NCBI GenBank assembly: GCA_963833095.1
Contig: CAWHWQ010000005.1
Span: forward strand, 448,001 to 512,000
Source of the DNA: Vulcanimicrobiota bacterium
GTDB lineage: Bacteria; Vulcanimicrobiota; Vulcanimicrobiia; Vulcanimicrobiales; Vulcanimicrobiaceae
DNA: 64,000 nt
Reading direction: 5' to 3'
A program made the translations under genes and the position numbers. This document shows positions 1 through 11,028 of the stretch, one piece after another (position 1 is the first letter of the stretch; every line of letters begins with the position of its first letter). A model generated the notes under the pieces. It was not told where the DNA came from, searched no databases, and saw only the letters and a program-made list of their open reading frames with translations.

Positions 1-353
1 CCCCCGCCCAAGCCGCCTACACCGGCATCGAGCCCATCCGCGTGGCGTCGTGCTCACTTGAGCCCGCCGCAGCGAGTCTCACCCTGCCCTACGGGCTGTT
101 TAACACGCCCAGCGGGTCGTCGACGGTGATTTCGTTCGTAAACGAGGCTCCGGCCACTGTCGCTTCGGTGACATTCAACGTGACCGACGGCCGCACGAGC
201 AGCCAGATCGTCGATCAAGGCACCTTCTCGAACGGCGTCCCGATCGAAAATCACCGCTTCACCACGCCGGAATTCCAAAACGACGTCAACGACGTGACCT
301 GCACGGTCAAGTCGGTTGCCTTCGCGGACGGTAGCATCTGGCAAGCCCAATAG
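1..353 (+). CDS. Hypothetical, probably exported protein, 5'-truncated by the window
   Basis: Frame is open from the window start (PAQAAYTGIEPIRVASC...) and ends CTVKSVAFADGSIWQAQ*; beta-rich, two Cys. Confidence 0.65.
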   Translation, partial: PAQAAYTGIEPIRVASCSLEPAAASLTLPYGLFNTPSGSSTVISFVNEAPATVASVTFNVTDGRTSSQIVDQGTFSNGVPIENHRFTTPEFQNDVNDVTCTVKSVAFADGSIWQAQ

Positions 354-7530: not shown

Positions 7531-7547
7531 GATGAACCTCCGGTTCT

Positions 7548-7587
7548 AAAAAAACAAGAGGCCCCGCCGAACCGGCGGGGCCTCTTG
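7548..7587 (-). terminator. Intrinsic terminator of the ilv attenuator
   Basis: Minus strand: CAAGAGGCCCCGCCG-GTT-CGGCGGGGCCTCTTG (15-bp perfect stem) followed by T7, 17 nt upstream of the ilvB start. Confidence 0.9.
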
Positions 7588-7609
7588 CTAGTGCGTTTCT
7601 CGCTAACCT

Positions 7610-7693
7610 CTACGCAGTAGTCAATCCCAACCGGTTCGGCGACGAACGGCTAATAAGGGCGAGGACTACGAGGAGGAGCGAGGCCAAAATCAT
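7610..7693 (-). CDS. ilv operon leader peptide MILASLLLVVLALISRSSPNRLGLTTA (27 aa)
   Basis: ATG to TAG read by hand; 10 of the first 14 codons are Leu/Val/Ile; contains an 11-nt segment complementary to the terminator. Confidence 0.85.
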   Translation of the reverse strand: MILASLLLVVLALISRSSPNRLGLTTA

Positions 7694-7701
7694 GTTGTTG
7701 C

Positions 7702-7731
7702 ACCCTACCATGGGCCAACTCCGACTGTCAA
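7702..7731 (-). promoter_or_regulatory. Sigma70-type promoter of the ilv leader
   Basis: TTGACA-18 nt-TAGGGT with extended TGn, 8 nt before the leader ATG. Confidence 0.65.
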
Positions 7732-8861
7732 GCGGCATAGCGCCGTCCCCGCCAGATAACCCCGCCGCGCGCATGCGCAACAACCGAAGTCACGAAAATC
7801 GCCACAACCAGCGTAATACCGATCGGTAGGTACCACGACGACCAGCGCCCCAAGCCGAGGCGTCGCATGCCCGACGATGCACCCACGATTGCGCAGAGCA
7901 TGGCAAGCGCGAGCGCTGCAGCCGCGGCTTCGGCCTTCACCACGAGCGCCACAACGACCGCGATCGGTGTAACCGGCGCCACGCACGCCAGCAAAATGAT
8001 CCCAAGCGCGGCAAAGGTCCCCTGATCGCGCGCGGCGACCCAGAAATTCTTTACGAAGCCCTGCCAGAGTTCGCCGAATGAGCGATACATGCGCACCCGG
8101 ATGAGCCCGTCGCCGTTGACGAGCGCGGTACGAAAGCGCCCGTCGCTCTTGAAGCGGCGCGCAAGCTCGAGATCCTCGGCGATCTCGCTGCGAACCGCCT
8201 CGTGACCGCCGATCGCCTCATATGCGCGGCGGACCGCGAGTATATATTGGCCGTTGAAGAGCGCGTTCTCACGAGCCGGGTCGTTGATCGCGCGCAGCGA
8301 CCCGATCGCAAACGCGATCGTCCAGAGAATGCTGGGAAGAAAGATCCGTTCGGCCGGCGTTATCATGATCTGCTCGGTCAACACACTAAGCACGTCGAGA
8401 TTGTGCGCTCGCGCATAAGTGAGGGAAGCGCTGGTGGCGCCGGGTTCGTGTTGCGTGTCGGCATCGGTGAAGAGCAGCCAATCCCCGCGCGCGTGCTGTG
8501 CGCCTTGGTGCAGAGCCCAAGGCTTTCCCACCCAACCGCTCGGTAGGATCTCTCCGGCAATCAATCGCACGCGCGGATCCTCGCCTGCAATGCGCGCGAC
8601 GATGGCGGCAGTGTCGTCCTCCGATCGATCGTCCACGACGATGATTTCGACATGCGGATAGTTTTGCGCGAGGAGTGACCGCACGCATTGCTCGATTTGC
8701 CGCGCCTCGTTGCGCGCCGGGACGATGATGCTGATCTCAGGCGCAACCTTTGGCGGAGGCACCGATTCGAGCGCAAAGCGCGAACGAAACGCGATGTGCT
8801 GACTGCGAAATGCGAACGCCAGATTGATGAGGACCAGCAGCGCAACGATCGTCACAAGCAT
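7728..8861 (-). CDS. Family 2 glycosyltransferase (CrtQ/HpnB-like, membrane-anchored)
   Basis: IIVPARNE, VDDRSEDDT, GWVGKPWAL, FTDAD, NGQY, AEDLELA, VRMY; N- and C-terminal TM segments; start taken at MLVTIV. Confidence 0.88.
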   Translation of the reverse strand: MLVTIVALLVLINLAFAFRSQHIAFRSRFALESVPPPKVAPEISIIVPARNEARQIEQCVRSLLAQNYPHVEIIVVDDRSEDDTAAIVARIAGEDPRVRLIAGEILPSGWVGKPWALHQGAQHARGDWLLFTDADTQHEPGATSASLTYARAHNLDVLSVLTEQIMITPAERIFLPSILWTIAFAIGSLRAINDPARENALFNGQYILAVRRAYEAIGGHEAVRSEIAEDLELARRFKSDGRFRTALVNGDGLIRVRMYRSFGELWQGFVKNFWVAARDQGTFAALGIILLACVAPVTPIAVVVALVVKAEAAAAALALAMLCAIVGASSGMRRLGLGRWSSWYLPIGITLVVAIFVTSVVAHARGGVIWRGRRYAA

Positions 8862-8921
8862 TGAGGCACGAGTTCCGTCAGCACTTGTCGTCAACCCGCC
8901 AAAGCGGGATAGAGAGGGGCT

Positions 8922-9079
8922 GGGGCGCTTCGATGGTGTCGACCGCCGATCTGATACACCGCGCGGCTCCGGGTTCGATTCCCGGGCGCTCCAGCCGCGA
9001 TGTCCCACCCGGCGTTGCGAAGTCGTCCGACGTGTGGTATCGTCGGCCATGTATCAGGTCGGCGGACACATCGAAGCGC
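8922..9079 (+). ncRNA. Structured ncRNA candidate (6S-like rod or Y-RNA-like tRNA mimic)
   Basis: 8925-8958 pairs with 9050-9079; interior holds a perfect T-arm CCGGG-TTCGATT-CCCGG and a hairpin CCGACG-TGTGGTAT-CGTCGG; followed by a terminator-like hairpin. Confidence 0.62.
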
Positions 9080-9115
9080 ACGAGGCGCCGCAGCAATGCG
9101 GCGCTTCGTCTTTCT
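9080..9115 (+). terminator. Terminator-like hairpin after the ncRNA
   Basis: ACGAGGCGCCGCA-GCAA-TGCGGCGCTTCGT followed by CTTTCT. Confidence 0.6.
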
Positions 9116-9166
9116 ATTGGTCATACCAATGACGACCGTTGCGGCAAGGCTCTGTTTGCCCGGCCA

Positions 9167-9865
9167 ATGAACACCCTGCGGATGAGTCGTGAGGTTCACG
9201 TCTATTCGCATGGTTCGACGCTTGCAAAGTGGCGGCAGATCATCGAAATTGCGGCGCTGGTCGCTGCCGGGGTCTGGGCCTTCTACGTCTTCGTCTATAA
9301 AGAGCGCATCAAGCCCGCGGGCGAAGCCCCGAATATCCAGATCCTGCGCTCCGCCACGCACGAGGCGCTTCCCCGCGGCAAAGAACTCGTGACCGTCATC
9401 ATCACGCTGAAGAACATCGGAACGGCTAACGTGGAGATGGGCGGTCTCATCGTCAACGCCTATGGGATCCGCTACGGCGATCGGATCGACAGCGCAGCGC
9501 CCGCTACGCGCACAACCGGCCTTATGACGGCAAATCACGGGCTCGTGGATTCCAAGCCCGTGCTTCTCTACACCTACTCCGCGATTTGGATTCCACTCGG
9601 CTCAGCGCGTCCGTTCAAGATCCTCTCGGGCGACACGTTCACGATTCCAATGTCGTTCGTGATCCAGAGCGGCTCCTATGACACACTGCGTCTGAACTTT
9701 GCACGGTGCGATCAGCGCGCCGACAATCTGCTCGTCACGCGCTACCTGCCGCGGATTTTGAAAGACGGATCCTTCGACGTGTCCTCAATGATCGCGCAAG
9801 ACGGTGCGCATTCGGGGCTCGAGTGCGGCGGAACATTATATACGGGCGGAGAGTTCGCCCTGTAG
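9167..9865 (+). CDS. Hypothetical single-TM membrane protein
   Basis: TM helix IIEIAALVAAGVWAFYVFVY then a beta-rich domain; start uncertain (9167 or 9182). Confidence 0.7.
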   Translation: MNTLRMSREVHVYSHGSTLAKWRQIIEIAALVAAGVWAFYVFVYKERIKPAGEAPNIQILRSATHEALPRGKELVTVIITLKNIGTANVEMGGLIVNAYGIRYGDRIDSAAPATRTTGLMTANHGLVDSKPVLLYTYSAIWIPLGSARPFKILSGDTFTIPMSFVIQSGSYDTLRLNFARCDQRADNLLVTRYLPRILKDGSFDVSSMIAQDGAHSGLECGGTLYTGGEFAL

Positions 9866-9866
9866 C

Positions 9867-9941
9867 TCCACGCCCCGTTGCGCAGCCGCCGCAGGCGTGT
9901 ATCGTGGGTTTTGTATCAGGCCTGCAGACACATCGAAGCGC
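9867..9941 (+). repeat. Degenerate direct repeat of the 3' half of the ncRNA (about 9004-9079)
   Basis: 9912-9941 matches 9050-9079 at 27/30 nt; weaker similarity (CCAC..CGTTGCG.AG.CG..GTATCGT.GG) extends to about 9867. Confidence 0.8.
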
Positions 9942-9942
9942 G

Positions 9943-11028
9943 CTAGGCGTCGGCTTTATGTGCTTTGGGTTGCGTTTCGGCGCGGAGTTGACCGCACGCA
10001 GCCGCGATGTCGCGTCCCATATTCTTGCGCACCGTTGTCGGCACGCCGGCCTTGTCGAGCACCGCCGCAAATTGCCAGATGCGAGCGTCCGTTGTTCCAG
10101 CGAACGGGCCGTCGGGCGTCGTGTTATACGGAATTAAATTGACGTGATAGAGGTTGCCGCGCATCAACTCGGCGAGTTCGCGCGCGCATTCCAAGGAATC
10201 GTTGACCCCTTCGAGCATCACGTACTCGAAGAACACTTTGCGGTTGGTCTTCGCTACGTAGCGCTCGCACGCCGCCATCAATTCTTCCAATGGAAACTTC
10301 CGGTTGACCGGCATGAACGCACTGCGCACCCGGCCGTTCGGCGCATGTAGTGAGATCGCGAGATTGACTTGCAGACCCTCGTCGGCGAAGCGATCGATTT
10401 TGTCGACCAGTCCCACGGTTGAAATCGTGATATGACGATGTCCCAAACCCAAACCGTGCGGATCGTGGAGCAGGGCGACCGCTCCCATCACCGCGTCGTA
10501 ATTGTGGAAGGGCTCACCCATGCCCATGAACACGACGTTGGTGATTCGTTTGTCGCGCGTTGCAAGCTCGCGCGCAAAGTAGCGCGCTTGATCGAAGATT
10601 TCGCGCGAGGTTAGGTTGCGCGTGAATCCGGCCTGCCCGGTCGAGCAGAAGGCGCAGGCAAACGCGCAACCGGCTTGCGAGGAGATGCACACCGTGGTGC
10701 GGTCGCCGCGATGCTCCATCAGCACCGCTTCGACTTCGTTGCCGTCGTGCAGGCGGAACAGCCCTTTGGTGGTCTGCGCGTCGTTCGAGCGCTGGACCAC
10801 TACTGGTGCGACCGACGTAAAGGAGAAGCCGCGTTGCTCGAGCGTTTCGCGCAGTTCTTTGGGCAGCGTCGTTACGTCGCCGATCGCACCGAGCAGCTCC
10901 TTATTTGCGGCACGGTAGATCTGCTTGAGGCGATAGTTTTTGAGGTCGAGTGCGCGCGAGAAGTCATCCGCATCGGCGAAGCCGATATCACGCGCCACCT
11001 CGTCGAACCAAATGGTTTGGGCGTCCAT
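9943..11028 (-). CDS. rlmN: Dual-specificity RNA methyltransferase RlmN
   Basis: CISSQAGCAFACAFCSTG, FMGMGEP, ISTVG, SLHA, NLIPYN, DIAAACGQL. Confidence 0.94.
   Translation of the reverse strand: MDAQTIWFDEVARDIGFADADDFSRALDLKNYRLKQIYRAANKELLGAIGDVTTLPKELRETLEQRGFSFTSVAPVVVQRSNDAQTTKGLFRLHDGNEVEAVLMEHRGDRTTVCISSQAGCAFACAFCSTGQAGFTRNLTSREIFDQARYFARELATRDKRITNVVFMGMGEPFHNYDAVMGAVALLHDPHGLGLGHRHITISTVGLVDKIDRFADEGLQVNLAISLHAPNGRVRSAFMPVNRKFPLEELMAACERYVAKTNRKVFFEYVMLEGVNDSLECARELAELMRGNLYHVNLIPYNTTPDGPFAGTTDARIWQFAAVLDKAGVPTTVRKNMGRDIAAACGQLRAETQPKAHKADA

Follow-up and report, generated by a model that had tools for sequence, protein, structure and literature searches.

In a stretch of 64,000 nucleotides (nt) of forward-strand DNA from a Vulcanimicrobiota bacterium (GenBank assembly GCA_963833095.1, contig CAWHWQ010000005.1, positions 448,001 to 512,000), which we call the window, we found an unannotated unit of about 235 bp that, with high confidence, consists of two genes. 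The first (unit A, 8922-8993, + strand) is a 72-nt tRNA-like gene that combines the identity elements of an alanine tRNA with an isoleucine anticodon. The second (unit B, + strand) would encode a small RNA (sRNA) whose 5' part (9050-9079) is complementary to 8925-8958, the segment that covers the 5' strand of the acceptor stem, the D-arm, and the anticodon arm with its loop. We consider it probable, on the sequence and comparative data given below, that the two genes form an RNA-RNA toxin-antitoxin (TA) pair with a missense tRNA as the toxin.

A preliminary description of the locus had read it as one stand-alone RNA of about 155 nt, either a short divergent 6S RNA or an orphan tRNA mimic. All the elements that it described are present at the positions given, namely the long pairing of 8925-8958 with 9050-9079, the T-arm at 8969-8985, hairpins at about 8996-9019 and 9027-9046, and a GCAA-capped terminator-like hairpin at 9080-9109. 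The locus is also hidden, as had been proposed, under false N-terminal extensions, in that the open reading frames (ORFs) 7728-9050 (- strand) and 8861-9865 (+ strand) are over-extended and the Pfam GT2 domain begins well downstream. Folding of 8915-9120 gave -115.6 kcal/mol (z score -5.2), and 0 of 200 shuffled sequences were equally low. ARAGORN called no tRNA at the locus, and Rfam, whose families include 6S, Yrl and transfer-messenger RNA (tmRNA), gave no gathering-level match within the window; at the locus it returned only sub-threshold matches, to mascRNA and tRNA-Sec at 21 bits. These weak alignments pointed to a 7-bp acceptor stem with a G3:U70 pair (8922-8928/8986-8992) that had been overlooked. 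Because the acceptor stem and the long closing stem use the same bases, they are mutually exclusive alternatives. The locus is thus structured and non-coding and has a tRNA-like part, but it holds two genes and not one RNA.

A cloverleaf with a short D-arm

Unit A starts with the acceptor stem, in which G3 lies at 8924 and U70 at 8990, followed by a 1-nt linker, a 4-bp D-stem (8930-8933/8939-8942) with a 5-nt GG loop, and a bulged 24-nt anticodon arm of eight layers (8943-8966), whose 7-nt loop (8951-8957) carries the anticodon GAT (Ile) at 8953-8955. A 2-nt variable linker leads to the canonical T-arm, and the gene ends with the discriminator base A73 (8993); CCA is not gene-encoded here. The assignment draws on sequence, fold, covariation and invariant bases. 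A structural parser run over all loci gave 106 matches, six of which were dropped by eye (one ordinary tRNA-Lys and five chance matches in coding DNA), leaving 100 copies for comparison. Across 78 distinct copies, 97.9% of cells were paired, and two-sided changes occurred in 13 of 23 pairs. The D-stem was invariant in those 78 copies, in part because the search pattern fixed it; 30 copies of greater divergence show covariation at each of the four D-stem pairs, and G3:U70 is kept in 29 of them. Covariation thus extends to all four stems of the cloverleaf. The covariance model (R1) gives the window tRNA 95.5 bits, by construction. In 9 of 14 low-GC relatives, chosen by eye among 24 rows, CCA is encoded right after A73, and 23 of 41 host tRNA calls end in CCA.

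The geometry is unusual, with a variable linker of 0-2 nt and a 7/5 acceptor branch. According to Steinberg and Cedergren, a twelve-layer compensation rule reportedly holds between the elbow and the loop of tRNA. In 42 of 51 parsed copies the D pairs and the 5' strand of the anticodon arm sum to 12, although the parser favoured 12 by one point. The four D pairs and eight anticodon-arm layers of the window copy may thus amount to the twelve layers of a normal tRNA. Three other short-D-arm tRNA-like sequences (L520, L562, L607) have a GAT loop, A73, and an A3:U70 or similar pair, with no antisense nearby; they are possibly a different odd class of tRNA-Ile.

Alanine identity elements on non-alanine anticodons

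G3:U70 is present in 99 of the 100 copies and A73 in 98, and neither was set by the pattern used in the named-genome search. G3:U70 is described as the major identity element for AlaRS (PMC7609411). The loop looks like an anticodon loop, with a pyrimidine at position 33 in 93 of 93 standard-length copies and A37 in 87 of them. Among these 93, the anticodons are GAT (62), GAC (18), GTC (9), CAG (2), GAA (1), and one mis-parsed CGA (the CCG read in L128 is an artefact and stands for CGA); CAC, GAG, CGA and GCC occur in divergent copies, and one degenerate copy carries the alanine anticodon GGC. The nine non-alanine types (GAU, GAC, GUC, GAA, CAC, CAG, GAG, CGA, GCC) all begin with G or C, and the codons that they read rank 2-17 in host codon use.

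We considered whether unit A could be the sole tRNA-Ala of the lineage and rejected this, since an ordinary tRNA-Ala is present in five of five closed relatives; the own assembly showed neither a tRNA-Ala nor a 16S motif. Genes for tmRNA, SmpB and AlaRS are present in the host, as are ordinary Ile, Val and Asp tRNAs. The alaS gene lies at G000:C8:86269-87910 (- strand) in several frame-shifted pieces, probably because of assembly errors.

A separate gene antisense to the anticodon arm

The mean energy of the duplex between a tRNA and an antisense segment was -37.6 kcal/mol for cognate pairs, as against -24.1 for non-cognate and -20.5 for shuffled ones, and the cognate partner ranked first of 100 in 45 cases and among the top three in 81. 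When the sequences were aligned without the triplet, the antisense triplet predicted the anticodon in 88 of 93 copies. The match holds across about 12 switches between GAT and GAC, at least five of them forced by well-supported branches, on a tree that excluded the loop and the antisense and whose bootstrap is not fully settled. G-U combinations outnumber A-C ones by 49 to 18 in the duplex and by 50 to 15 in the stems, the excess expected for pairing as RNA on this strand. These results indicate that anticodon and antisense have evolved together.

Among the 14 low-GC relatives, the antisense lies downstream on the same strand in eight, downstream on the opposite strand in two (L584 and L589, where the terminator is shared), and upstream and divergent in two (L596 and L447, the former with its own -35 and -10 boxes and terminator); in the other two it was not seen. 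An antisense on the opposite strand cannot be the closing stem of one transcript and must be a separate gene. The window itself contains a second antisense unit without a tRNA (9866-9952, + strand), which comprises the remainder of a trailer hairpin, a P2 promoter (9878-9905, 16-nt spacer), an antisense segment of another allele (9913-9941), and a terminator cut by the 3' end of rlmN. The window tRNA pairs with this orphan segment at -28.2 kcal/mol, as against -42.1 with its cognate segment.

No terminator lies between units A and B. In predicted folds, the acceptor stem formed with a probability above 0.5 in 84 of 100 precursors that end before the antisense, and in 1 of 100 when the antisense was included. 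This loss of the acceptor stem in read-through folds suggests that the rod of the preliminary description is likely the off-state of the full read-through transcript.

Transcription signals

The putative promoter of the tRNA-like gene, P1, lies at 8884-8913 (+ strand) and consists of TTGTCG (8885-8890), a 17-nt spacer, and GATAGA (8908-8913). Its box, GATRGA, is non-standard and not a TAnnnT -10 box. In 88 of 100 copies it stands 7-9 nt upstream of the tRNA, the box being required by the search rule, and 51 of those 88 have TTG at the -35 position. The P1 motif, of the type CTTG-N19-GTGAT/GGGAT, was also seen 8-32 nt before several host ORFs, at about 15459 (+ strand) in the window, G000:C1:181307 (- strand) and C3:261216 (+ strand); one of these ORFs we take to be RecA from its N-terminus. 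Across the genome, P1-like sites showed no enrichment at the threshold used (44 vs 36). The motif is a possible lineage-specific promoter class.

Downstream of P1, a 3-nt leader (8919-8921) pairs in the precursor with A73 and the two trailer bases that follow it. Among the 100 copies, -1:73 is U-A in 90, -2:74 covaries (CG 72, GC 11, UA 7), and -3:75 is GC in 90 and GU in 7. The trailer hairpin (8996-9019), whose 3' arm holds the -35 box of the second promoter, reaches -4 kcal/mol or lower in 77 of 100 copies. In L305, L307, L308, L511, L513 and L615, the loop of a trailer hairpin contains a second segment complementary to the anticodon arm, a possible extra safety catch in cis.

The second promoter, P2 (9015-9043, + strand), is of the sigma70 type, with TTGCGA (9015-9020), a 17-nt spacer ending in TGn, and TATCGT (9038-9043). 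Its pattern, TTGnnn-16..18(TGn)-TAnnnT, was found in 93 of 100 copies and in 16 of 20,000 shuffles; a generic promoter scan passed over the window P2, which has 8 of 12 consensus matches at a threshold of 9. From the position of the -10 box, the sRNA would start about 7 nt past it. A D-loop-like hairpin that had been described at 9027-9046 does form here, but only 9 of 100 copies keep the pairing, and the stretch belongs to the promoter, as its spacer and extended -10 box. A test for a conserved stem at the -10 box of P2 scored no higher than controls. The unit closes with an intrinsic terminator (9080-9118, + strand), the 13-bp GCAA hairpin with a T-rich tail, which would end both the sRNA and P1 read-through. 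A 3' hairpin of -13.7 kcal/mol or stronger is present in 100 of 100 copies. In L035, L036 and L043-L046 the terminator meets the rlmN stop codon head-on, and it may serve both directions there.

Antisense units persist without the tRNA

We then compared how the two units are lost, using 72 loci (73 less one duplicate) picked from similarity matches, not at random. All 44 intact tRNA units had an antisense unit (43 by profile and L062 by eye), whereas 25 of 58 antisense units had no intact tRNA, three of these retaining a damaged full-length copy. Besides one complete module, the own genome carries two orphan antisense units. Locus L302 has lost the antisense by deletion, and its tRNA is altered at two positions that are invariant in 78 of 78 copies; in L358, L359 and L029 the antisense is absent and the tRNAs are broken too. 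The sequence at L050:5445-5500 equals the L048 copy minus 16 nt, including the anticodon loop, and its antisense unit is intact. Decay is thus one-sided.

Known RNA classes

A 6S RNA was not matched at the locus by RF00013 with E values up to 10. Full-length sub-threshold 6S matches occur at another locus in three of five closed relatives, and the sequence at G000 C8:113826-114014, which the Rfam search of the own genome missed, is 95% identical and syntenic to a relative's match and is likely the 6S RNA of the lineage; a P1-type motif was seen just downstream of it (C8:114044). The 6S RNA is single-copy, and the module is patchy and multicopy. The inner hairpin is kept in 9 of 100 copies, the internal promoter in 93 of 100, and the 3' arm lies on the opposite strand in four relatives.

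The permuted tRNA layout of a Y RNA (YrlA/YrlB) did not survive inspection either: the arms are in normal order, the acceptor end is free, Rfam gave no Yrl match, and a search for TROVE genes found none in the own genome (81% complete), in any of five carriers (92-96% complete), or among 68 neighbours. With tmRNA the locus shares a G3:U70 acceptor and a T-arm; there is, however, no tag frame, the 24-nt arm closes on a 7-nt loop, the D-stem covaries, and the true tmRNA lies elsewhere (G000:C5:256756-257109, - strand, L031). The host tmRNA has a GGCAGUA-type T-loop, not UUCRA, as in alphaproteobacterial tmRNA. Divergent copies of the module receive weak Rfam tRNA or tmRNA scores. As in type VIII TA systems, there are two non-coding RNA genes, their transcripts deduced from promoters and terminators, with no protein partner.

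Copies and carriers

A DNA search gave matches in 32 of 61 related genomes, including 17 of 17 in the genus, often several per genome. A pattern scan of named genomes found carriers in Vulcanimicrobiota (Eremiobacterota), with a parsed unit in 51 of 121 returned loci, and the covariance model scored in 47 of 151 genomes of the phylum and in none of several closed ones. The same pair of genes turns up in numerous soil bacteria. Inspection of 21 weak covariance matches identified 14 members and seven ordinary tRNAs, among them all five from other classes. The copies number 0-5 per genome and lie, patchily, at unrelated intergenic sites: as arrays of one to four between the GT2 glycosyltransferase gene and rlmN, with changing cargo, and singly at dnaN-recF, dnaX-recR, ftsZ-pilT, sucC, and a tricorn-peptidase site.

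Among the matches listed in scans of metagenome and viral contigs, the same design occurs on contigs of 28-71% GC. The gene adjoining L571 exactly matches a protein that carries the label Patescibacteria, and three viral contigs carry the module (L075, L443, L447; possibly also L460). Two viral pattern scans gave one member among 2 matches and the same one among 60, and a further viral scan gave L443, L447 and possibly L460 among the 120 matches listed; the other matches were to ordinary tRNAs or the ends of tmRNAs. L088 and L099 (L323, L324, L327, L328), contigs whose titles name Babeliales and Gammaproteobacteria, have flanks 73-80% identical to the own genome and are therefore not counted as other phyla; they are probably mislabelled or misbinned. 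In the phylum of a Limnocylindria record 0 of 301 genomes scored; in the class of a Gaiellaceae record 32 of 141 did, at 41 bits or less, and the 25 inspected were ordinary tRNA-Phe or tRNA-Ala. A plasmid collection gave no match and a phage collection one 25-nt chance match. Pfam searches of 68 neighbouring ORFs, out of 93 cluster representatives, found no integrase, transposase, TROVE, synthetase or defence protein, and PADLOC found nothing in 21 copy neighbours. Relatives of the locus occur in three sets of metatranscriptome contigs; such contigs may hold DNA and show no ends, strand or level.

In the window, the module is flanked by the GT2 gene and rlmN, and ilvB is one gene away. Upstream of ilvB, a leader at 7538-7649 (- strand) with a strong terminator hairpin is a possible attenuator of the ilv operon. 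The ORF at 9167-9865 (+ strand; 232 amino acids, N-terminal hydrophobic stretch) is not part of the module; it belongs to the variable cargo of the GT2-rlmN region, where it is found in 7 of 14 loci (L034-L047), and lies beside no copy at other loci. It had no Pfam or PADLOC match, and its look-alikes are unnamed clusters only, in several phyla.

Discussion

In the mechanism that we propose, P1 would transcribe gene A as a pre-tRNA, both ends of which would be trimmed and to which CCA would be added, and AlaRS would charge the product (RNA A) with alanine through G3:U70 and A73. The long anticodon arm would compensate for the short D-arm and linkers, so that the L-shape would be kept. RNA A would then read abundant non-alanine codons (AUC and AUU here), inserting Ala for Ile, and in other copies Ala in place of Val, Asp, Leu, Phe, Ser or Gly; the mistranslation would poison the proteome. 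Gene B would supply, from the standard promoter P2 and in excess, an sRNA of about 65 nt whose single-stranded 5' end would enter at the anticodon loop, pair over about 30 nt, mask the anticodon, and unfold the tRNA. Full read-through transcripts would fold on themselves into the rod and be inactive, since no terminator lies between the genes. When the locus is lost or transcription halts, the sRNA would decay and the stable tRNA would be freed, leading to addiction, growth arrest or abortive infection. That such a toxin can work is shown by the allo-tRNAs, of which, in the accessible text of the reports, missense forms arrested and killed E. coli (PMC5389517) and G3:U70 forms inserted alanine (PMC5389517; PMC7609411).

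Several observations weigh against this proposal. IleRS or ValRS may compete for GAU and GAC RNAs with A73 at the end. In the copies from the named-genome scan, the D-arm and T-loop were fixed by the search pattern, as were U70-A73 and a GWY anticodon in the copies from metagenome contigs. The copies are kin and partly near-duplicates, 78 of the 93 of standard length being distinct at <97% identity. There is a subclass with a 9-bp anticodon stem and 13 layers, only 36 of 100 copies have the isolated anticodon stem predicted with a probability above 0.5, and the fold of the 72-nt unit by itself is no better than that of shuffled sequences (z score -1.0). C33 (23 of 93) and a non-purine at position 37 (5 of 93) are unusual for decoding tRNAs. 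Two near-identical, intact-looking copies (L515, L594) have no adjacent antisense in a flank of 300-500 nt, the intact-looking tRNA of L592 has none adjacent and a trailer that enters unrelated sequence, and L585 combines an intact-looking tRNA with a mismatched antisense. Finally, some allo-tRNAs are reported to be charged yet unused in translation (PMC5389517).

The same two genes might serve as a regulated and useful mistranslation switch instead of an addiction unit, the Ala-tRNA passing hungry codons under stress or a shortage of Ile or Val and the sRNA otherwise holding it off. Such a role would suit the prevalence of Ile and Val anticodons (80 of 93), the hot spot that lies one gene from ilvB in the genus, and a P1 of the non-standard type that also precedes host genes, presumably one RecA among them. 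It does not account for the Asp, Ser, Gly, Phe and Leu anticodons, for the copies at dnaN-recF, dnaX-recR, ftsZ-pilT and other loci, or for the closed genomes with no match and the accumulation of orphan antisense units, and P1-like sites are unenriched. We therefore regard it as unlikely.

We find it rather hard to believe, too, that the pair is a TA system with a non-decoding decoy, an RNA that would deplete AlaRS, EF-Tu or SmpB or block the A site, with the loop as a mere toehold. Such an RNA may descend from the tRNA-like domain of tmRNA; sub-threshold Rfam tmRNA scores in two copies (35.1 and 27.5 bits), the resemblance of the 5' end to that of the host tmRNA, the odd geometry and C33 all speak for it. 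The tmRNA domain has a stemless D-loop and a GAC linker, however, whereas here the D-stem covaries and the variable linkers are 0-2 nt; a toehold requires neither Y33, A37, G or C at position 34, nor a bias to abundant codons; and the layers sum to 12 in most parsed copies, with the parser's one-point preference noted above.

A supplementary tRNA with cognate charging (Ile, Val or Asp), kept by the sRNA as a reserve, for example against anticodon nucleases, seems to us very improbable. A73 fits IleRS and ValRS, and copies do occur on viral contigs; G3:U70 nevertheless stays constant while the anticodon changes, the GUC copies have A73 and not the G73 that AspRS requires, and the host already has ordinary tRNAs for all three amino acids. 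We give as little credence to a non-autonomous mobile DNA, such as a miniature inverted-repeat or integrative element, or a recombination site, in which the inverted repeat would act as DNA and the tRNA shape would be left over from a target of integration. The repeat lies inside the unit and is direct in L584, L589, L596 and L447, G-U exceeds A-C, the promoters and the terminator are conserved outside the repeat, and no integrase or transposase was found among the 68 neighbour ORFs scanned; these points stand against the tandem arrays, the changing cargo between GT2 and rlmN, and the partial copies that start at the T-arm like attachment scars. That the locus makes one RNA of 155-190 nt, 6S-like or Y-like, is barely credible, even though no fold of the read-through transcript is lower in energy than the rod, given the separate 6S-like gene, the missing TROVE gene, the unconserved inner hairpin, and a 3' arm with its own promoter and terminator that occurs alone in 25 of 58 cases and on the opposite strand in four relatives.

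Returning to the missense-tRNA toxin and its antisense antitoxin, we compared them with known systems, using the accessible parts of the papers cited. Allo-tRNAs likewise put one amino acid's identity elements, some with G3:U70, on unrelated anticodons, and they are mobile, soil-associated, and reported near TA genes (PMC5389517, PMC7609411). They differ in having an 8/4 or 9/3 branch and a long variable arm, whereas RNA A combines a 7/5 branch and a nearly absent variable arm with a short D-arm and a long anticodon arm. RNA A was set apart from the irregular tRNAs of allo-tRNA figures S5-S6 by text search only; in PMC5389517, 'antisense' and 'complementary' do not occur in the main text, nor 'antisense' in the text of the supplement, as far as these were available. 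In the type VIII pairs CreTA and SdsR-RyeA, toxin and antitoxin are also both RNA and translation is a target (PMC10767807, PMC12737573). However, CreT, a mini-mRNA, acts by sequestering a rare tRNA, CreA acts via Cascade on a promoter, and SdsR and RyeA are overlapping genes on opposite strands; in the module described here, a tRNA would itself be the toxin, and the antitoxin, which would pair with its anticodon arm, has a gene of its own that does not overlap the first.

The fold is similar to those of pyrrolysine tRNA (tRNA-Pyl) and mitochondrial (mt) tRNA-Ser(UCN), which are described as having an acceptor-D linker of 0-1 nt, a 4-5-nt D-loop, a short variable region, and a lengthened anticodon stem, bulged in M. 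alvus tRNA-Pyl, and as being L-shaped still (PMC7609411). Their anticodon stem has 6 bp, compared with 7-9 in RNA A, both are cognate tRNAs, and neither has an antisense partner. The tRNA-like domain of tmRNA resembles RNA A in its G3:U70 acceptor, A73, similar 5' end, and weak Rfam scores; unlike tmRNA, RNA A has a real D-stem and neither tag frame, pseudoknots, nor a fixed GAC linker. With 6S and YrlA RNAs the likeness is limited to the long closing stem of the read-through fold and the T-arm. The literature that we searched, mostly outside subscription journals, contained no natural sRNA gene dedicated to silencing a tRNA and no TA system with a tRNA toxin, and neither gene, nor their pairing, had a described counterpart there. 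TADB 3.0, in its accessible text, lists two validated RNA-RNA kinds, CreTA and SdsR-RyeA.

Taken more broadly, and with the balance tipping somewhat in favour, the module may represent a widespread protein-free TA class that ARAGORN and Rfam have missed: an Ala-charged mistranslating tRNA of short-D-arm, long-anticodon-arm fold, reprogrammable at its anticodon, joined to an anti-anticodon sRNA, and serving for addiction or abortive infection, at least in Vulcanimicrobiota and Patescibacteria and in their viruses. By TA type it would be a new mechanism within type VIII, needing host enzymes only. The fold, with its 7/5 branch, 4-bp D-stem and 8-layer anticodon arm, would be a naturally occurring example, in the cytoplasm, of the compensation seen in mitochondrial tRNAs and tRNA-Pyl. 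If the proposal is true, it would add a third RNA-RNA TA mechanism, with sabotage of the genetic code as a switchable bacterial poison, and it would offer a testable answer to a question left open by the allo-tRNA work, namely why missense tRNAs persist in soil genomes.

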